Of a DNA stretch of 35,465 bases, positions 254 through 34,047 are shown piece after piece. The stretch is from a virus (Duplodnaviria > Heunggongvirae > Uroviricota > Caudoviricetes). The DNA lies in IMG/VR virus record IMGVR_UViG_2534681764_000015; one strand, 5' to 3'. The position numbers and the translations under genes are program-made. Position 1 is the first letter of the stretch; each line of letters opens with the position of its first letter. The notes beneath the pieces are model-generated. The model saw nothing but the letters and a program-made list of their open reading frames with translations, ran no database searches and was not told where the DNA came from.

Positions 254-427
254 ATGGATCTTTTTGTCTACTTTGCTACTCTGCTGTTTTTGACTATCGT
301 CGCTGGCATTAAATTGATTTTTATATCGCTGGTGGTGTTTTTCAAATTTCTAATCGGTACGCCTTACGGCTGGGTATGCTTCTTTTTGTTTATTCTTTTT
401 AGTTGCTGTAAAAAGGATACTAAATAA
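254..427 (+). CDS. small membrane protein (57 aa), hypothetical
   Basis: ATG at 254 preceded by AAGAGGA; product MDLFVYFATLLFLTIVAGIKLIFISLVVFFKFLIGTPYGWVCFFLFILFSCCKKDTK strongly hydrophobic; preferred over antisense ORF 350..556. Confidence 0.4.
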   Translation: MDLFVYFATLLFLTIVAGIKLIFISLVVFFKFLIGTPYGWVCFFLFILFSCCKKDTK

Positions 428-584
428 TAGTGTAATCTGCCTTTTCTCCTTATGGTTATTAACAGGGGATCTTCTTTGAGGATTCCCGATTAAAAGCCAT
501 AAAACACACTCCAGTACAGTGTTTTCATAGTCAGGATCTATACAACATAAAAACATAACAAGTATAGATTGAGTATTAATCCTC

Positions 585-687: not shown

Positions 688-711
688 GGGACTCTTCGGA
701 GTCCCTTTTTT
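688..711 (+). terminator. rho-independent terminator candidate
   Basis: perfect hairpin GGGACTC-TTCG-GAGTCCC followed by TTTTTT; abuts stop codon of minus-strand gene 710..1654. Confidence 0.55.
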
Positions 712-1654
712 ATTGGCAGTAAGAAAAGTTAGTACCGTACATTTCATCATGAAGCATTGCAACATTGCGTTTCTGTTCTTCTTCCTCGTCTACCGCATCA
801 CTAGAAAAATGAGATTTGCCCTTAAAAGAACGAAGCAATTGCAGTGCAGCCATCGGATCACGCATCACATCGATTTTCACTTCTACTTCATCATTTGCGG
901 CCTCATCAGCCGCATTTTCAACTACTGCCACCGGAGCAACTTCTTTAGCTTTCAGTTCTTCAATCTCAGCTTTCTGTGCTTCGATGATCTGGTCTTTTTC
1001 TTCCAGCGCAGCTTTCAGTTCTGCGATCTGTGCTTCCAGTGCAGAGAAACGATCTTCAACAGCAACCGGAGAAACAGCATTAACCTGTGCTTCCAGTTCT
1101 ACGAAAGCGTCGCAAGATTCAATACGTGCTTTTTCTTCACCTTCATATGCAACCAGTTCTACTACTTCTTTCTCAGTAGTGTGGCTGTTAAAGAATACAG
1201 CAAAGTAAGGATTGCCGGATTTGGTGAAGTTCAGTTTAGCTTTTCCGGTAACTTCTTTACGACGACCAAAGGTAATGTTGCAATCAGCGGTATCCTGAAA
1301 ATCCATGTTAGGAGCGGAAACGATAGCAGTATCACCAGCAATCACTAGGTGGAACAGTTCAGAAGAGTTCTTAACGGTGAAAGTAACGATGTGGTCTACT
1401 GCAACGTCTTTAGCAGGTTTAACGCGGTCGATTGCTTTACGAATGCCGTTAGGCAGTTTACCGTCAACACCAAAGCCAGCCGCGATCAGTGCTTCACGAT
1501 GTGCTTTAAAGCCAGCGAAAGCGGATTTCTGCTGCGCAAAGGAAACATGAGCAACAACTTTCGGCTGAATCTTCTTGTTTGCTTCGGTGCCAAATTTGAT
1601 AACTGCTTTAGCGTTGGTTACTTCGTTAGTGAAAAAGTTAGCGGAAAATAACAT
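710..1654 (-). CDS. hypothetical protein with central coiled coil and acidic C-terminal tail (314 aa)
   Basis: long ORF with AGGAG 8 nt upstream of ATG; heptad-like segment ALEAQIAELKAALEEKDQIIEAQKAEIEELKAK; function not recognised. Confidence 0.6.
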   Translation of the reverse strand: MLFSANFFTNEVTNAKAVIKFGTEANKKIQPKVVAHVSFAQQKSAFAGFKAHREALIAAGFGVDGKLPNGIRKAIDRVKPAKDVAVDHIVTFTVKNSSELFHLVIAGDTAIVSAPNMDFQDTADCNITFGRRKEVTGKAKLNFTKSGNPYFAVFFNSHTTEKEVVELVAYEGEEKARIESCDAFVELEAQVNAVSPVAVEDRFSALEAQIAELKAALEEKDQIIEAQKAEIEELKAKEVAPVAVVENAADEAANDEVEVKIDVMRDPMAALQLLRSFKGKSHFSSDAVDEEEEQKRNVAMLHDEMYGTNFSYCQ

Positions 1655-1769: not shown

Positions 1770-1949
1770 TTAACAAACTTGAACGTTAATCTTTACCTGA
1801 ATTTCGTATTTCTTCATTAGCTTGTAGAATCCGCTTCTATCAATTCCTTCCTTCTTAAAGAAGTTTTCCCCGCCTCGCTCAGTGTCGCTGTAAAAGCGTT
1901 TAGCAATATCAACAATCATTTCACGAGTGAACTTAACAGGTCTAGCCAT
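1770..1949 (-). CDS. small putative DNA-binding protein, GRP/ARP-motif family (59 aa)
   Basis: ATG at 1949 with GAGGAA 9 nt upstream (ORF track starts at GTG 1964); N-terminal ARPVKFTREMIVDIAKRFY and C-terminal GFYKLMKKYEI motifs shared with 5376..5609. Confidence 0.5.
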   Translation of the reverse strand: MARPVKFTREMIVDIAKRFYSDTERGGENFFKKEGIDRSGFYKLMKKYEIQVKINVQVC

Positions 1950-2048
1950 CAGTCGATTCCTCACATGTGGATTAATAATTTCTTAAAAAAGAGCATTTCG
2001 CTCTGAACACTTGTATTTATAAAATGATTTTCAGAAAACCCTGTAAAA

Positions 2049-2070
2049 CCACTGTATATCCGATCAGTGG
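2049..2070. promoter_or_regulatory. 22-bp palindrome CCACTGTATATCCGATCAGTGG, SOS-box-like operator candidate
   Basis: CTGT-N8-TCAG core, one mismatch from LexA CTGT-N8-ACAG; perfect 6-bp dyad arms. Confidence 0.4.
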
Positions 2071-2133
2071 GAGCACGAATTGCTAAAGAGAAGATTAATT
2101 ATTAATCAATTCGTACAATATTCAACCGAAAAA

Positions 2134-2155
2134 GCACTGTATATCTAACCAGTGC
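2134..2155. promoter_or_regulatory. 22-bp palindrome GCACTGTATATCTAACCAGTGC, second SOS-box-like operator candidate
   Basis: shares ACTGTATATC with first box; outer arm base changed compensatorily so dyad symmetry is kept. Confidence 0.4.
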
Positions 2156-2306
2156 TGTATGAATTAGCAGTGAATCAGGAGATTTTCAGAAGTGAACAAT
2201 CATTTCACACATGTATTTATAACGTGGAAATTCTTGCTTATCATCTATATGGGGACTGTTTAGAAAATTTCAACCCCCACCAGTGAGAAAAAGTATAAAA
2301 TAATCC

Positions 2307-2320
2307 TTGACAGTTGTCAA
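2307..2320. promoter_or_regulatory. palindrome TTGACAGTTGTCAA (operator or -35 candidate)
   Basis: perfect inverted repeat of TTGACA hexamer; related palindrome at 3829..3848. Confidence 0.3.
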
Positions 2321-3237: not shown

Positions 3238-3257
3238 AGGAGGGCTATGCCCGACTG
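3238..3257 (+). repeat. right copy of 20-bp direct repeat AGGAGGGCTATGCCCGACTG
   Basis: 19/20 identical to copy at 2845..2864; lies about 90 bp upstream of gene 3348. Confidence 0.6.
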
Positions 3258-3347
3258 AATACCAATCCCTTCCAAATAGATAAAAAATTCTCGTTATAAA
3301 TACTAGTGTAATTTGTTTGATTCACTTTCTTTTAGAGGATTTCCACT

Positions 3348-3806
3348 ATGAACCACAAGATGACTACCACTACTCCTTTTATCCTTCTGGGTCTGGATTC
3401 TGATAGCTTCCACAATGACAAGTTAATGAAGATGTTCCGTGAACGTGGTTATAACATCCTTTTCAACTCTGATGAATCCCATTTCTCTAGTGCATGGTAT
3501 GCGTTTTGCCGTAATAAGAAGCCGACCATTGTTGTTAACGTCTTCACCGATGAAGAACGCTTAAAGTACCAGAATCTACCAGCAATTATTGTTCGTGATG
3601 ATCTGCCGTTTCAAGTCCGTTCCGGTGACATTGACCTGGGTAGCTTCTTGACTCTTCGTGAACTGGATGAAGCAATGTTTAATTACGGTAAAGAAACCGC
3701 TCAGGAAGCCCCAGAACAAGATGAGGAAGACGAAGACTACGCACCAATCGCTTTCTCTTCTCACGGTGGCTTCTACGGTTACGATGAAGGCTTAGATATG
3801 CTGTAA
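3348..3806 (+). CDS. hypothetical early protein with acidic C-terminal tail (152 aa)
   Basis: ORF with AGAGGA RBS; C-terminal EAPEQDEEDEDYAPIAF; first gene after the 1.4-kb non-coding region. Confidence 0.6.
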   Translation: MNHKMTTTTPFILLGLDSDSFHNDKLMKMFRERGYNILFNSDESHFSSAWYAFCRNKKPTIVVNVFTDEERLKYQNLPAIIVRDDLPFQVRSGDIDLGSFLTLRELDEAMFNYGKETAQEAPEQDEEDEDYAPIAFSSHGGFYGYDEGLDML

Positions 3807-3841
3807 GTTAGGTCAACCCTTTGGCGTCTTGTCAAGGGGTA

Positions 3842-3870
3842 TTGACAAAAATTTCTGACTTTTTTATGAT
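3842..3870 (+). promoter_or_regulatory. sigma70-type promoter TTGACA-N17-TATGAT
   Basis: consensus -35 at 3842-3847, 17-bp spacer, near-consensus -10 at 3865-3870, about 57 bp upstream of ATG 3927; -35 is the right half of inverted repeat 3829..3848. Confidence 0.55.
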
Positions 3871-3926
3871 TATCGCACTTGACAACTTTGAACCTATTTG
3901 ACCTAGATTTGTAAAGAGGATGTAAC

Positions 3927-4259
3927 ATGAAAGAATTTACCATCACTAAATCCCTGTATGACTGGACTGTTAAAATCTCCGGCAAAACCGTTTCTGTAAC
4001 CCCTAGCCATGTAGAAAATGATTGGGGTGTATCCCGTGAAACTATCTCCCGTAGTATGCATGTTCCGTTTGATCTGATGACCTTAACTGGTATTCATGCA
4101 ATGCTGGAAGTTCGCGAGCAATTCGAAGCTGGTAATCACAATGCGACTCCAGTTAACAATCACCTTCTTACTAATGAAGAACGTGAAATCATCGAAAATT
4201 GGCGTTATGAATATGCGATTCCTTATTATGAAGAAGACCAAGTAGAAATCGATTGGTAA
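3927..4259 (+). CDS. hypothetical protein (110 aa)
   Basis: ORF downstream of strong promoter with AAGAGGA RBS. Confidence 0.6.
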   Translation: MKEFTITKSLYDWTVKISGKTVSVTPSHVENDWGVSRETISRSMHVPFDLMTLTGIHAMLEVREQFEAGNHNATPVNNHLLTNEEREIIENWRYEYAIPYYEEDQVEIDW

Positions 4260-4348
4260 TAAATTTCTATCATAAATAAAATTGTTCCGGTTGAGATGCC
4301 GGAACTAGGAGGACCAAATCACTAAACCGTTTAAGGGGAATTTTTACT

Positions 4349-5182
4349 ATGAATACTGTTACTACTATGAATACTGCTGTTAAAACTGCTTCCGTGTCTC
4401 TGGTTGTTGATAACACCAAACCACTGACCATGTCTTCTCGTCAGATCGCTGAATTTACCGGAAAAGAACACCACAAAGTTAAAGTTGATATAACTAAGAT
4501 GTTGAATGCTCTAGGTTATGAAGATCACGCGAAGTTTCGCGTCATCTATTTTGACCAATACGGACGCGAACAAAACGAATATCAACTAGACGAAGAAATG
4601 ACTCTGACTCTTGTCACTGGTTACGATGTTAAGCGTCGAATGGTTGTTATTCAGGAATGGAAACGACTGAAAGAAGAAAATGAAAAACTGCGTTCTCAGC
4701 AAGTCAACCCATACGCAAACATGACTAAGCTCGATTGGATTCGTGAGGCAATGGAATTAGAAGCCGCAAACGAACAACTGATTCAAGAAAAAGAACAATT
4801 AGTTGATCTTCATATCCGTAAAGCTATTGATGCACACAGTCTTAGCCGCTTATTAGGCGAAAAACGAGGCTCTACGAAGGTACAAATGATTCTGAAAGGT
4901 TTATGTGCTGCTGGTGTTCTTGAGCGTCGTCTGGATGCTTCTGGTAAGCCTAAAGGCTATGATCTGCTTCCTCCTGGCTATATGTTCGCTCGTATGTCGG
5001 CACACGGTCAGATCGAGTTCACTGCTGATGCTATCCCGCATCTCGTAAAACTCGGATTGCTTGAAGAAGAAAAGGCCGCAACTTTGAAATTGCCACAGCC
5101 GAATAACTCACGAGCAATCATTAATAACACTGCTTTGCTGATTCGTCAGAATGCTGGCTCTCTGGAAGTCTTCGGACTGTAA
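4349..5182 (+). CDS. Rha-family phage regulatory protein / antirepressor-like (277 aa)
   Basis: N-terminal LTMSSRQIAEFTGKEHHKVKVDITKMLNAL...YFDQYGREQNEYQLDEEMTLTLVTGYD matches the Phage_pRha signature as recalled; coiled-coil middle. Confidence 0.65.
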   Translation: MNTVTTMNTAVKTASVSLVVDNTKPLTMSSRQIAEFTGKEHHKVKVDITKMLNALGYEDHAKFRVIYFDQYGREQNEYQLDEEMTLTLVTGYDVKRRMVVIQEWKRLKEENEKLRSQQVNPYANMTKLDWIREAMELEAANEQLIQEKEQLVDLHIRKAIDAHSLSRLLGEKRGSTKVQMILKGLCAAGVLERRLDASGKPKGYDLLPPGYMFARMSAHGQIEFTADAIPHLVKLGLLEEEKAATLKLPQPNNSRAIINNTALLIRQNAGSLEVFGL

Positions 5183-5375: not shown

Positions 5376-5609
5376 TCAAAAACCTGTTGCTTCTACGATC
5401 TGACCATCACCGATCTGAACATAGAATTTAATGTCCAACTTCTTCATATTCTTATAGAATTGGGCGATTGAGATCCCATGTTCACTAAGAATCTGTTCTT
5501 TCGCTTCCTTACCACGATCCGCTGTATAATAAGCGTAGGCAATATCAGCCATCTGTTCAGCGTTAAAACGGGCAGGGCGACCGCGAGTAGCTTTAGTAGT
5601 CATAGTCAT
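5376..5609 (-). CDS. small putative DNA-binding protein, GRP-motif family (77 aa)
   Basis: ATG at 5609 with GGAGA upstream (track start 5636 is GTG); TRGRPARFNAEQMADIAYAYY and FYKNMKKLDI motifs paralogous to 1770..1949. Confidence 0.5.
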   Translation of the reverse strand: MTMTTKATRGRPARFNAEQMADIAYAYYTADRGKEAKEQILSEHGISIAQFYKNMKKLDIKFYVQIGDGQIVEATGF

Positions 5610-5638: not shown

Positions 5639-6244
5639 TTATTTAGAGGACTTACATTTTATCGGAAAAAGTTCTCCATCGTCAACCGACATAAAGAACT
5701 CTGCCTTAATCCCGTACTTCTTCAACCGTGAATAATATGTACCCCGACTAATATCAACCTTGCGCAGCACTTCGAAGAACTCTTTAGGATTCCTGTAATA
5801 GTGGCTATATCGCACGTTAGCGAGTTCTACAAACAATTCCCTTGAATCACCATAGCCTTTCTTAAAAGCCACATTACGATAGCGTGTAATGGCATGATTC
5901 AATCTCTTCTGTTTAAGCACTTCCCTAATCGGTGTCCACTGCAACCGATAGATAGGACCGTCATCTACTCGATAGAATCGCTTAATGTCAAAATCAAACC
6001 ATTCACGAACTCTATTAAACTCTGTCTGTGATGTACGATGCTTCTTAAAGAAGTTATGAATATCGGTATACCCATGATCGCGATACAACTCGATTAAAAT
6101 CTGTTTAGCTTCCTCACGACTAAAGCCAGATGTTGTGTAATCAGTCTTCTTGTGATGGTGCTTAACTGGCAAACGATATTCATGATCGGTACAACAAGAA
6201 AAGGCTAATTCTAATGCATCTCTTTGTTGCTGATTAATTAGCAT
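5639..6244 (-). CDS. hypothetical protein with C-terminal HTH-like motif (201 aa)
   Basis: ORF divergent from terminase; C-terminal ISRGTYYSRLKKYGI resembles the C-terminal motif of the two small GRP-family proteins. Confidence 0.55.
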   Translation of the reverse strand: MLINQQQRDALELAFSCCTDHEYRLPVKHHHKKTDYTTSGFSREEAKQILIELYRDHGYTDIHNFFKKHRTSQTEFNRVREWFDFDIKRFYRVDDGPIYRLQWTPIREVLKQKRLNHAITRYRNVAFKKGYGDSRELFVELANVRYSHYYRNPKEFFEVLRKVDISRGTYYSRLKKYGIKAEFFMSVDDGELFPIKCKSSK

Positions 6245-6331: not shown

Positions 6332-8236
6332 ATGAAACTGATTTCTAATAAGGCAAAATTAAAAAAGATTCTCAGAAATATCTCTGCTGCAATTCGCCCA
6401 CCTAAAGCCATGAAACCTAGCGAATGGGTAGAGGCTAATGTAGTTGCAACCGATGGTGTTAAAGCCGGATCGCTAATTAAATTGCATCCTTTCCAACGTG
6501 GGATGATGGACGCGATCACCGAAGATAGGCGAAAAATTGTGCTAAAGTGCTCGGCGCAGTTGGGTAAAACTCTTGTGCTAAACGGTATTATCTTTCATAG
6601 GATCGCCAGCAACCCCACTAATATAGGTGTTTTGCAAGCAAACGTCCGCGAGTTGAATAGCTGGATCGCGGGTAAGGTGAAGCCAGTATTAGAGGCAACC
6701 CCAGAATTAAAGGCGATGATCACCGACAAGTCAGATCGCAATGCCGTTAACAACTCATCGATTATTCAGCTTCGTAACGGATCATTCATGTATTTCATGT
6801 CGTTGAATAGTCCATCACATCTTCGCGGTAAAACACTACCTTTGATTATTCTTGATGAAGTTGATGCGGCTGATGAGTCAGACGAAGGGAACCCGATCCA
6901 GCTAGCGGAACAACGCGCAACCACTTTCGGTGATGATGCAAGGATCGTAATTGCTTCTACTCCAACTTCGCGGGATGGGGCGATAAACCAACAATGGGAA
7001 CTCTCGGATAAAAGAAAATACCACGTCGTTTGCCAGCATTGCGGACACAAACACGTAATGGAATGGAGTAGAGTATTCTTTGATTGGCATGTAATCAATG
7101 GTAAATCACTGCCGAATCCAGACACAGCCGTTTACCGTTGCCCGTCATGTGAAACTGATTGGTCAGAACCAGATCGCCTCCGTGCTGTTGCTCAGGGAGA
7201 ATGGGTCGCCACCGAACCAAATGCGGAAGTAATCGGTTTTCATGCTAACCGCCTTATGTCTCCGTTTAGTTCTATCCGTGCGTGTGTGGTGGACTTTGCT
7301 GATAGCTACGCGAATATGTCGCTGGCAACGTTCTATAATGTGGTGCTCGGTGAAACCTTCGATGATCTTAACGAAGACCGCACAGCCGACGAACTGGAAA
7401 CGCTGAAAACTGACATTAGCTTAGATAATATTCCTGATGATGTTTTGGCTCTGGTAGGTGGAGTTGACCAGCAAAAAGACCGTCTGGAATCTACCTTGCT
7501 GGGTATCTCTCGTAAAGGGATATGCGTAGTTGATCACCGATCATTCTATGATGTGAACTGCGAACGCCACGAATCACCAGCATATGACCAGCTTTACAAC
7601 TTCCTGAAAGCAAAATTCTATACCCGATCCGGTCAACGAATCCCGATGCTATCCGCTTTCGTGGACTCATCAAACGGACGAGCTACGCAAGTGATCTACC
7701 GCTTTTGCACTAGGTGGCAAAATCTATGCGCCATTAAGGGCGCAAGTAATGTTGATGCTCCAATCCTTCCGGTAAAAGACACAAGAACGGGCGGTTTTAC
7801 CCTTAAAATTCTGGGCGTAAACAACCTTAAGACGATGATCCGTGAAATGATTAACCGGAACTTGAGAGACAGCGATCCTCATACGGTCTTCCAGATTGGT
7901 GACGTTCCTGATGACTACTGCGAGCAATTGCTATCTGAACAGTTGAAACGGCAGGGTAATACCACACGTTGGGTAAAAGTTGGTCAGCAACGCAACGAGG
8001 GCTTGGACTGCCTAACCTATGCGGTGGCTAGTTATCGCCATGTACTCAATAAAATGTCATGGGAAAAACTCGAAGCCATCAAAGATAGTTTGAACCGTGA
8101 ACCAGAAGAATCCGTAGAAGCTCCTAAATCGCAATCTGACGAGCAAATCGAAGAAAATAAGCCAATCACACGACCACAACGTAAAAACATCGCCAGACGC
8201 CCAAATAGAGGCCGTAGCTGGGTAACATCGTTCTAA
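6332..8236 (+). CDS. terminase large subunit, GpA (lambda) type (634 aa)
   Basis: Walker A-like CSAQLGKT, Walker B-like LIILDEVDAADE, Cys cluster CQHCGH...CPSC, size and position ahead of portal. Confidence 0.85.
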   Translation: MKLISNKAKLKKILRNISAAIRPPKAMKPSEWVEANVVATDGVKAGSLIKLHPFQRGMMDAITEDRRKIVLKCSAQLGKTLVLNGIIFHRIASNPTNIGVLQANVRELNSWIAGKVKPVLEATPELKAMITDKSDRNAVNNSSIIQLRNGSFMYFMSLNSPSHLRGKTLPLIILDEVDAADESDEGNPIQLAEQRATTFGDDARIVIASTPTSRDGAINQQWELSDKRKYHVVCQHCGHKHVMEWSRVFFDWHVINGKSLPNPDTAVYRCPSCETDWSEPDRLRAVAQGEWVATEPNAEVIGFHANRLMSPFSSIRACVVDFADSYANMSLATFYNVVLGETFDDLNEDRTADELETLKTDISLDNIPDDVLALVGGVDQQKDRLESTLLGISRKGICVVDHRSFYDVNCERHESPAYDQLYNFLKAKFYTRSGQRIPMLSAFVDSSNGRATQVIYRFCTRWQNLCAIKGASNVDAPILPVKDTRTGGFTLKILGVNNLKTMIREMINRNLRDSDPHTVFQIGDVPDDYCEQLLSEQLKRQGNTTRWVKVGQQRNEGLDCLTYAVASYRHVLNKMSWEKLEAIKDSLNREPEESVEAPKSQSDEQIEENKPITRPQRKNIARRPNRGRSWVTSF

Positions 8237-32318: not shown

Positions 32319-33998
32319 TTAAATTCCAAATTCCTGTAATGGACCTGGTATTTCCTCTTCTGGTTTCCAGTTCTTATCTGTCAGCATGTCTAAACATGGA
32401 TGCAAAACAAGCCCGTTACTCTCCAGAATCTGCCTATCATTGATAGTTTTCAAATCAATGAATATCCGGCCTTTCCTCGTTCCTCTTGAATTTTCTATTA
32501 CAACTCTCTGGGTCTTTCCATCGATGTATTCCAGCACAAACAAGTTTTTATTTCTGTCAATCCTGCTACACCCGATCCGCTTTAGAGCTTGCTTAATCTT
32601 AAACCGGACCTTTAGTCGTTCCTCGTTATAAACATCTTCTAAATCAAATTCTGCGAGCTTCTCCCAGCCTTGAGAGTCCACAGAATACATTTCCTCTTCT
32701 GCCATCTTGATCTGATTGTAGAGTGTTTCACGCTCGCTATTGAGGGTAGTAATCTGATCGGCTAGCTCCTTCGTTGCTCCTGTCATAGCAGAAAGGGCAA
32801 TCAGGTTATCAATCTTGCGTGATATTTCATCAACCTGTACTTTCAACGCCGGAACCGGATTAGCCTTGTCCTCAGCAATCCAGATTTTATCAGCCAGCAA
32901 TTGCAATACAGCTTTCTCTAATTGATCACCTCGAAAACTCCAGTTTGGATGCTCGCAATCAAGTCTACGTGAACGGGTCGCATCACATGTATAACGATAC
33001 TGGTCAGAACGTTTGTTCGTTCCCTTCACTTTAACCATAGCGCAACCGCAATGATCACATTTCAATAGGCCAATACCACTAAGCAGGGGGATCGGTTTAA
33101 CTTCTTCCTTGTCTCCAAAGTTCCATGCTCTAGCACCAATATTTTTCTTAAGGTGATAGAACGTAGCATCATCAATAACACGAGGGTAATAATCCTTTAA
33201 CTCATAGTTAACACCATCTACAGAGACTTCCTTGATACCAATCAAAGCGCGGGTATGGAACAACCTTTCAACCATTGCCCGTGACCATTTTGAATGCTTC
33301 TTATTACTAACCGCTGGTGGCGGTGTATATGTCTCGTTAAGGTGATCCAGTATTTCGGCGGTTGAACGTCCATTCTTCCGTAATTCCACAATCTCCTGAA
33401 CAACAGGGAAGTATGTAGGATGAGGCAACACATAACCGGAAGTGGTATCCGTCCACCACATATTCTTTCCAACTTCCTCGATTGCCACTGCCGGATTCTG
33501 GGGATTTTCTTGATGGGCTTTAATCTTAATCAGTGCGCTTGAGTTAGTACGATTGCGCTTAGTCTGGCTTTCCTCATTACCACGGATGAATAAAAGGATG
33601 GAGAACATCAGGTCCATCGGGTTAGCGGTAACAGTATCCAGCGAGTAGATCTTGTTATCCATGCCAGTAACAATGGTTATCCCCCTACGGATGATTGAAA
33701 GGAATAACTCCTGCGCACTGACAATATCGGCACGGGATAAGCGGTCCAAGTTTTCAATGAATAGCCAGCTACCAACAGGAACGGATCTACCAATTGCATC
33801 AAGGAAACGAGATAGCGCCCCTGTTTTGGAGTTAGCACCCTTAAACGCAGATACACCCAGATCCTGATAATCATTTACCAGTTCAAGGTCATACTTTGCC
33901 GCAACCTCTCTCGCCATCCTGATTTGTCGTTCATAACTCGAACCATCATTCTGACGCATAGACGAGAAGCGAATATACGAATACAGTTTAGTTTTCAT
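32319..33998 (-). CDS. large serine recombinase (integrase-type) (about 559 aa)
   Basis: N-terminal LYSYIRFSSMRQ catalytic-Ser motif of the resolvase/invertase domain, Cys cluster CDHCGC...C...C (zinc ribbon), C-terminal coiled coil; ORF track extends to TTG at 34013. Confidence 0.85.
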   Translation of the reverse strand: MKTKLYSYIRFSSMRQNDGSSYERQIRMAREVAAKYDLELVNDYQDLGVSAFKGANSKTGALSRFLDAIGRSVPVGSWLFIENLDRLSRADIVSAQELFLSIIRRGITIVTGMDNKIYSLDTVTANPMDLMFSILLFIRGNEESQTKRNRTNSSALIKIKAHQENPQNPAVAIEEVGKNMWWTDTTSGYVLPHPTYFPVVQEIVELRKNGRSTAEILDHLNETYTPPPAVSNKKHSKWSRAMVERLFHTRALIGIKEVSVDGVNYELKDYYPRVIDDATFYHLKKNIGARAWNFGDKEEVKPIPLLSGIGLLKCDHCGCAMVKVKGTNKRSDQYRYTCDATRSRRLDCEHPNWSFRGDQLEKAVLQLLADKIWIAEDKANPVPALKVQVDEISRKIDNLIALSAMTGATKELADQITTLNSERETLYNQIKMAEEEMYSVDSQGWEKLAEFDLEDVYNEERLKVRFKIKQALKRIGCSRIDRNKNLFVLEYIDGKTQRVVIENSRGTRKGRIFIDLKTINDRQILESNGLVLHPCLDMLTDKNWKPEEEIPGPLQEFGI

Positions 33999-34010
33999 AC
34001 CATTTCCAAA

Positions 34011-34047
34011 CAAAAACGCCCCTACCGCGTATTATAACGATAGGGGC
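34011..34047 (-). terminator. rho-independent terminator candidate for gene 34062..34481
   Basis: minus-strand hairpin GCCCCTA...TAGGGGC followed by GTTTTTG. Confidence 0.45.

Follow-up and report, generated by a model that had tools for sequence, protein, structure and literature searches.

Three candidate SOS boxes in the switch region of an uncharacterised Escherichia coli prophage

SOS boxes in prophage control regions are a known means of coupling induction to DNA damage, and the closest described systems use them in several ways. In coliphage 186 (tum) and in the Gifsy prophages, a LexA box lies at the promoter of an antirepressor whose target is a CI-type repressor (PMC3121763). In the Bacillus phage GIL01, LexA acts with gp7 at promoter P1 (PMC4551915, PMC6182141), a precedent for LexA being the prophage repressor itself. 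Colicin operons have double SOS boxes (Lu and Chak 1996, as cited in PMC2994835). The PSOSP predictor (PMC12527982) sorts prophages by the lowest heterology index (HI) in their promoter regions, SOS-dependent ones averaging 7.5. Here we describe IMG/VR record IMGVR_UViG_2534681764_000015 (35,465 bases; "the window" means this whole stretch), an uncharacterised ~35-kb Escherichia coli prophage with relatives in 61 of 5,426 complete E. coli genomes (80-99% identity). Its switch region contains three candidate SOS boxes and, judging from their sequence and conservation, it is likely that all three are LexA operators through which DNA damage would induce early prophage transcription. The mechanism would be a familiar one, in an unstudied phage lineage.

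The three boxes lie in a 1.4-kb non-coding stretch between the leftward genes p64 and p314 and the rightward genes p152, p110 and Rha. They span 125 bp and are intergenic, 100-220 bp upstream of p64, the small minus-strand gene ahead of which the initial annotation had rightly located them, in what it took for a control region. Box 1 (CACTGTATATCCGATCAGTG, 2050..2069) is a weak LexA-type box within a 22-bp dyad at 2049-2070, box 2 (CACTGTATATCTAACCAGTG, 2135..2154) is a strong one, and box 3 (TGCTGTATGAATTAGCAGTG, 2153..2172, with a core CTG-N10-CAG at 2155-2170) overlaps box 2 by 2 bp, the two centres being 18 bp apart. The initial annotation had singled out two 22-bp dyads, CCACTGTATATCCGATCAGTGG (2049-2070) and GCACTGTATATCTAACCAGTGC (2134-2155), and both read exactly there, as does CTGTATGAATTAGCAG at 2155-2170. 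These two are the only CACTG-N10-CAGTG sites in the window even when one mismatch is allowed; both are exact and they stand 85 bp apart. Since base composition predicts about 0.02 exact sites per window (our own arithmetic), two such copies at this distance are not due to chance. Both sites of the proposed pair are thus present, and yet the grouping is probably a different one: a tandem operator made of boxes 2 and 3, with box 1 as a distal, weaker operator 85 bp to the left. The third element, at first taken for a half-site, is a full box (20-mer 2153-2172), with a perfect CTGT-N8-ACAG in most relatives. Across the window the loose core CTGT-N8-ACAG with at most one mismatch is not enriched (12 found, 10.2 expected), and the signal therefore lies in the cluster and in the quality of its sites. 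We did not find the box sequences in the literature searched.

With E. coli as the host, the right yardstick is the LexA consensus of this species, CTGT-N8-ACAG; the gammaproteobacterial SOS box is a 20-bp dyad resembling TACTG(TA)5CAGTA. Sites were scored with a Lewis-type HI (lower values are nearer the consensus), using a symmetrised count matrix from 18 E. coli SOS boxes (PMC3009722, Table 4) and a background of 300 random windows of 35 kb generated by a first-order Markov model. The 18 published boxes score 2.0-12.2; in leave-one-out scoring, values rise to as much as 17.0. In a 19.5-kb control from E. coli K-12, the matrix recovers the known operators: the two lexA boxes (7.0 and 8.7) and the uvrA/ssb box (9.5) rank at the top, the 8.7 and 9.5 boxes being outside the training set, while the next best position (16.1) is worse than box 1 and no position outside the known SOS boxes reaches HI 14 or better. 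Host LexA can thus be expected to recognise the motif that is scored here. In the window, box 2 (HI 6.6) is the best site by a wide margin and lies well inside the validated range; its score is reached in 0 of the 300 random windows. It is also below the PSOSP average for SOS-dependent prophages, and the element would therefore be called SOS-dependent on box 2 alone. Box 3 is borderline (HI 11.7, with 0.23 such sites expected per random window), because it carries GCAG instead of ACAG, a weakened form common to the window and to the element of strain GN4741. Box 1 is weak (HI 14.0, with 1.08 such sites expected per random window), outside the validated range here and inside it at the same position in Salmonella. 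Scoring with a LexA matrix for the presumed host, as the initial annotation had proposed, thus bears out the SOS-box resemblance for box 2, leaves box 3 at the border and finds box 1 poor in this sequence.

Relatives were gathered from IMG/VR, metagenomes and assemblies by searches with the p64 protein and with DNA patterns, and their switch regions occur as discrete types. Type A, which has the three boxes, is found in 31 of the 5,426 complete E. coli genomes, and we compared 28 distinct type A sequences: the window, 20 others from E. coli and seven from Salmonella. The 85-bp and 18-bp spacings are kept in all of them, save for two that differ by a 1-nt indel. Boxes 1 and 2 have CTG and CAG in every sequence (28/28), and box 2 always has CCAGTG, while the box 3 triplets vary (CCG in five sequences, CAA in one). 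Among the 21 distinct E. coli sequences, 2 of 18 triplet columns are variable, against 12 of 30 in the box centres and 83 of 292 in the surrounding DNA; the contrast is statistically modest, but its direction is as expected for LexA sites, suggesting purifying selection on CTG and CAG with a freer centre and freer flanks. In the relatives box 2 scores 5.7-10.6 and box 3 scores 5.3-10.6 in most, most of them having a perfect CTGT-N8-ACAG at that place, and 11.9 or worse in the five CCG variants of E. coli. Box 1 remains at 12.3-16.8 in the E. coli relatives. In Salmonella, box 1 reads CTGTATATTTACACAG / CACTGTATATTTACACAGGT (HI 7.5) or CTGTATATTTTCACAG / CACTGTATATTTTCACAGGG (HI 10.0), with canonical CTGT-N8-ACAG cores, and both the CAGTG arm and a GATC have gone. 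The position therefore appears to be selected for a LexA-type site and not for a particular 22-mer: at the level of sequence, a LexA site would be expected to change as it does in Salmonella, whereas a CACTG-specific site or a hairpin would not. Box 1 is credible mainly because its position is conserved and because a canonical box occupies it in these relatives. In sum, box 2 scores as a true SOS box in the window, and in relatives all three boxes do.

The GATC in box 1 is a Dam site; it is kept in all E. coli type A sequences and absent from several Salmonella variants.

These comparisons also bear on whether the boxes might be a non-functional relic, that is, the product of a local duplication combined with chance likeness to the LexA motif in AT-rich DNA. 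Boxes 1 and 2 do lie within a 25-nt direct repeat (84% identity in a repeat search), the loose core is no more frequent in the window than expected, and the whole block at 2040-2120 is highly conserved, so that the conservation of box 1 is not box-specific. Chance likeness, on the other hand, is hard to square with a box 2 score that is absent both from the 300 random windows and from 19.5 kb of K-12 outside the known SOS boxes, and with three boxes that stand at fixed spacing in Salmonella despite diverged flanks and that score better there. We regard a relic as very improbable.

Alternatively, the sites could be operators for a dimeric regulator encoded by the phage and specific for CACTG-N10-CAGTG, for example p64 or the Rha-family protein, in which case the SOS likeness would be coincidence or mimicry. 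Of their 20 bases, boxes 1 and 2 have 17 in common, among them C1 and G20, which depart from the consensus, and their 85-bp distance corresponds to about 8 helical turns; the element encodes several uncharacterised proteins resembling helix-turn-helix (HTH) proteins and, given that some relatives lack the boxes altogether, another regulator must exist. What argues against such a regulator as the reader of these boxes is, first, that the CACTG and CAGTG arms drift in relatives while CTG and CAG are kept. The initial annotation had taken the exchange of the outermost pair (C..G in one dyad, G..C in the other) as a compensatory change that preserves symmetry; this argument carries no weight, because C2155 is also the first base of the box 3 CTG, and the outer arms of relatives change uncompensated (AACTG, TACTG, CAGCG, CAGAG, CAGGG, CAGGT). 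Second, box 3 has TGCTG...CAGTG or CAGTA arms, yet it is conserved together with the other boxes. Third, no phage protein follows the boxes: p64 variants only 55% identical to each other co-occur with the same switch type, and, whether or not a switch type has the boxes, variants of p64, p152, Rha, p86 and p314 are found in free combination with it. A cognate repressor that co-varies with its operators, as for CI and Cro, is thus not seen; the boxes occur with divergent early proteins, for none of which a repressor family was matched. Finally, the chromosomal dinB SOS box has the same CACTG...CAGTG arms. A phage-encoded reader of CACTG-N10-CAGTG consequently seems improbable to us, if less so than a relic.

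The dyads could also act as RNA, forming hairpins (weak terminators or processing sites) in a leftward transcript that starts from the promoter at 2320..2292. On the minus strand, each would form a 6-bp stem with a U-run behind it (UUUUU at box 2, UUUU at box 1), shuffled controls fold less well than the leftward RNA (z = -2.9), and two variants (L143 and L145) lengthen the box 2 stem to 7 bp by two changes. The stems are nevertheless short for loops of 10 nt, and the plus strand folds equally well (z = -2.6), as any palindrome would. Moreover, arm substitutions in relatives are not compensated, box 3 is a poor hairpin and yet conserved, and the loop bases are those that LexA prefers (a T following CTG, an A or C preceding CAG, an AT-rich centre). 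A stable, compensated stem with a U-tract, the mark of a terminator, is therefore not what we find, and we give the hairpin explanation as little credence as the relic.

If the boxes are LexA operators, which promoters would they control? The variation of the box centres rules out conserved promoter hexamers there, and the boxes must therefore act on promoters beside them. Two candidates, scored in bits with a matrix of our own, fit such an arrangement. A predicted rightward promoter, P_R (2091..2119, plus strand), has a -35 AAGATT (2091-2096), a 17-bp spacer and a -10 TACAAT (2114-2119); its start near 2126 would put boxes 2 and 3 at about +9 to +46, 15 nt after the -10. Across relatives it takes the form (A/T)(A/T)GATT-17-TACA(A/T)T, with a weak score in E. 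coli (2.2-3.8 bits) and a good one in the Salmonella relatives (TTGATT-17-TACATT, 10.0 bits). A predicted leftward promoter, P_L (2051..2079, minus strand), has a -35 TTCGTG (2079..2074), a 17-bp spacer and a -10 TACAGT (2056..2051). It would start near 2044, which is 95 nt upstream of the p64 ATG, and its spacer and -10 lie under box 1. P_L scores 6.2 bits and is identical in 28/28 sequences, an invariance that is no proof of a promoter because both hexamers lie within other conserved motifs. Other candidates were rejected: promoters within the box centres (minus-strand TTCATA-16-TACAGT; plus-strand -10 TATATC or TATGAA) have hexamers that relatives do not conserve, and a leftward TTGAAT-16-AATAAT (2125..2098) loses its -10 in the Salmonella relatives. 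Likewise, a 44-aa open reading frame at 2152-2286 that starts inside the boxes was rejected as coding, since it has no ribosome-binding site (RBS), is broken by frame-shifting indels in L001 and lies in a region that is unrelated in Salmonella.

The working model that we propose is a divergent, LexA-gated pair of early promoters. In the undamaged lysogen, LexA dimers on the boxes would keep early prophage transcription off. Upon DNA damage, RecA-stimulated self-cleavage of LexA would free the promoter(s), so that the early genes would be switched on and the prophage would move towards induction. As a best guess, P_R would be blocked just downstream of its start by boxes 2 and 3 and would lead to p152, p110 and Rha, while the weak P_L would be covered by box 1 and would lead to p64 and p314. 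Both LexA binding at the boxes and the passage from derepression to induction are steps that we infer.

A third promoter in the region is strong: the sigma-70 promoter at 2292..2320 on the minus strand (TTGACA-17-TATACT) has 11 of 12 consensus matches (15.1 bits) and faces the boxes. A near-consensus leftward promoter is found in every switch type, at a distance from box 3 that varies (~113 nt here, ~35 nt in the Salmonella relative L177), and it is therefore unlikely that the boxes act by occluding it. It may instead oppose the rightward promoter by convergent transcription.

Several observations weigh against a role of the boxes as LexA operators. Two of the three are imperfect: the HI of box 1 in the window is outside the 2.0-12.2 range of the reference sites, at a quality met about once per random window, and box 3 is weakened in the window (GCAG) and broken (CCG) in five E. 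coli variants. In addition, no convincing sigma-70 promoter overlaps the boxes in E. coli, the only strong one being 113 nt off and aimed at them. Lastly, prophages with the same gene order and without the boxes exist: type B of E. coli has no switch-region site at HI 12.5 or better, and the Proteus version of the region likewise lacks boxes. LexA is therefore not indispensable to this phage family, and another regulator must exist. Type B has extra copies of an AGCAC..TGCTAAAGCGG motif (AGCAC..TGCT repeats) in place of the boxes. The palindrome AGCACGAATTGCT, beside box 1 at 2072..2084, is invariant in the 28 type A sequences and is the only switch-region block common to types A and B; type B (e.g. 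L016, ~4700-4860) multiplies it, two full copies and two half ones standing in the place of boxes 2 and 3. AGCACGAATTGCT is probably the operator of this second regulator.

Three versions of the switch region thus exist under one gene order: the three-SOS-box type A (E. coli and Salmonella), type B (E. coli) and the Proteus version. It is tempting to go one step further and to propose that the maintenance repressor acting on the early or lytic promoter is host LexA itself, as it is in GIL01, and that the ~500-bp switch region is exchangeable, so that the trigger of induction could be swapped; we hold this wider proposal only tentatively and consider it rather unlikely as a whole. Should LexA binding be confirmed, the boxes would provide the first experimental handle on switching in this phage lineage, and lysogens of types A and B would offer a natural comparison of SOS-dependent and SOS-independent induction, a comparison that bears on predicting which antibiotics mobilise prophages.

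The genes on both sides of the boxes are poorly covered by curated families: searches of Pfam, PHROG and NCBIfam returned nothing for p64, p314, p152, p110, p86, p201 or the integrase-adjacent genes, and the Rha domain is the sole curated-family match among the early proteins of the lineage. The first leftward gene, p64 (1770..1949, minus strand; 59 aa from an ATG at 1949), encodes a small, three-helix, HTH-like protein (AlphaFold pLDDT 77.7; helices 9-21, 28-34 and 38-47) and is a candidate SOS-controlled gene. A fold search with the p64 model had DNA-binding HTH domains as its top matches, none of them significant, and a PDB sequence search with p64 was empty. p64, p86 (5376-5606, minus strand) and the repeats of p201 (5639-6244, minus strand) are paralogous small HTH-like domains that share the motif (G/A)RP..F...E......A...Y......GI....FYK..KK, for which there is no curated-family match. 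The second leftward gene, p314 (710..1654, minus strand), found only 96-99% identical hypothetical proteins in a protein search, which are of no use for a deeper alignment, and a scan over one genome per species gave no match. Many type A relatives have another gene, of 333-341 aa, in its place. The gene after p64 in fact exists with two unrelated N-terminal versions (314 aa, window 710-1654, minus strand; 333-341 aa, e.g. L001 5297-6322), both of which share an acidic coiled-coil middle and a C-terminal ..LHD..Y.TN.S motif. On the other side, p152, p110 and the Rha-family gene (3348..5182, plus strand; Rha at 4349-5182) are the rightward early genes and possible targets of the predicted P_R. 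The Rha-family protein matches Phage_pRha (2.8e-11) and PHROG anti-repressor families (2.7e-17). From the boxes it is 1.2 kb to the rightward early genes and 2.2 kb to Rha, with two genes and 1.2 kb of non-coding DNA in between.

Several further features of the early region deserve mention. A perfect CTGT-N8-ACAG core at 1185-1200, inside the p314 coding sequence (20-mer GGCTGTTAAAGAATACAGCA, HI 11.5) and also present in type B loci, may be chance, as 0.23 sites of such quality are expected per window. In the p64 leader, a small hairpin with a U-tract (AGAGCGAAATGCTCT TTTTTT; 1984..2004, minus strand) is terminator- or attenuator-like; type B keeps its stem with a different sequence (GAGCG..CGCTC), as do variants through a G-U pair, and it coincides with the junction at which the p64 module recombines. 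A further motif, TTATAAATAC (TAAATAC-W-N-GTGT when extended), is present four times against 0.12 expected, always in the early region (1654-1663, plus; 2013-2022, minus; 2213-2222, minus; 3294-3303, plus), with a weaker copy at 421-433 (plus). Two of the copies lie 45-75 nt upstream of the p152 and p64 starts, one lies between the strong leftward promoter and box 3, and the motif is conserved in the Salmonella relatives; its core, TATAAATA, equals the T4 late-promoter consensus. Within the 1.4-kb non-coding stretch, 2515-2710 holds an iteron-like array of ~9 irregularly spaced copies of TTTTGCCCCTGAAAT, also seen in relatives, which could be an origin or a binding array for packaging or for a regulator. 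The segment 3154-3235 is ~77-78% identical to an intergenic element that is repeated in RB49-like T4-type phages and that, in RB49, lies just upstream of the small ORF RB49ORF130w; a hairpin (TTCTTTCTTCGAAAGAAAGA) with AT-rich sequence behind it is part of the element. A 20-nt direct repeat (2845-2864 and 3238-3257; AGGAGGGCT(T/A)TGCCCGACTG) resembles, in each copy, an RBS with a mini-ORF of 3-5 codons. Rfam searches returned no RNA family anywhere in the window.

As for the element as a whole, genes for terminase, portal, capsid, tail and lysis functions lie on the plus strand of the window, and the large serine recombinase is encoded at 32319-34013. In GN4741, a ~35.7-kb element splits ycdX, adjoining ghrA; one of its ends has a small terminase gene, the other a large serine recombinase with a few cargo genes. 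The lineage is widespread: it was found in E. coli, Shigella, E. fergusonii, Salmonella and Proteus, and its insertion site is ycdX, a PHP phosphatase gene. Mosaicism is high among its early genes, with identities of 38-100% between Rha variants. A nucleotide search of phage and plasmid collections gave no close relative of the window, and the best large-terminase match is only 43% identical. In the element, Pfam, PHROGs and NCBIfam revealed no CI-like or S24 repressor, no Cro and no replication gene.

Tandem sites resembling those of the window also occur elsewhere. Among the pattern matches listed from the viral collection, which before filtering by HI are mostly chance matches, three unrelated metagenomic viral contigs have SOS-box-like sites in tandem (L252, 5611-5684, four in a row; L229, ~7137-7257; L231, 483-520), with an 18-bp period and the same CAGTGCTG junction as in the window. 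The 18-bp tandem arrangement may thus be a recurrent operator design.

Set beside known SOS boxes, the three sites have close counterparts on the E. coli chromosome, where the boxes are likewise 20-bp CTG-N10-CAG dyads: box 2 shares the CACTGTATA...ACCAGTG frame of the dinB box (CACTGTATACTTTACCAGTG), and box 1 shares the unusual TCAG half-site of the uvrA/ssb box (TACTGTATATTCATTCAGGT). There are also differences: here three candidate boxes are packed into 125 bp, and they stand in a prophage switch region. The double boxes of colicin operons resemble lexA's own pair and boxes 2 and 3 in being two adjacent boxes, expected to hold two dimers, with tight repression of a function whose leakage would be lethal. 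The lexA boxes are 21 bp apart, whereas boxes 2 and 3 have an 18-bp period and 20-mers that overlap by 2 bp; colicin boxes overlap more and lie just after the -10, while the abutting boxes 2 and 3 follow the -10 of a promoter that is itself predicted. With 186 tum and Gifsy, the prophage would share the principle that host LexA, not cleavage of a phage repressor, ties induction to damage, and a Rha-like gene does lie downstream in the rightward direction; in those phages, the box sits directly at the antirepressor promoter, whereas here 2.2 kb separate the Rha-like gene from the boxes, and the family searches revealed no CI-type repressor in the element. GIL01 differs in host and box consensus (Gram-positive there), in virus type and in its need for the small co-repressor gp7, and the box-free relatives show another means of control in the present family. 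What the two would have in common, together with CTX-phi at PrstA, is that a prophage lacking a classical cleavable repressor uses host LexA on several boxes of unequal quality at an early promoter.

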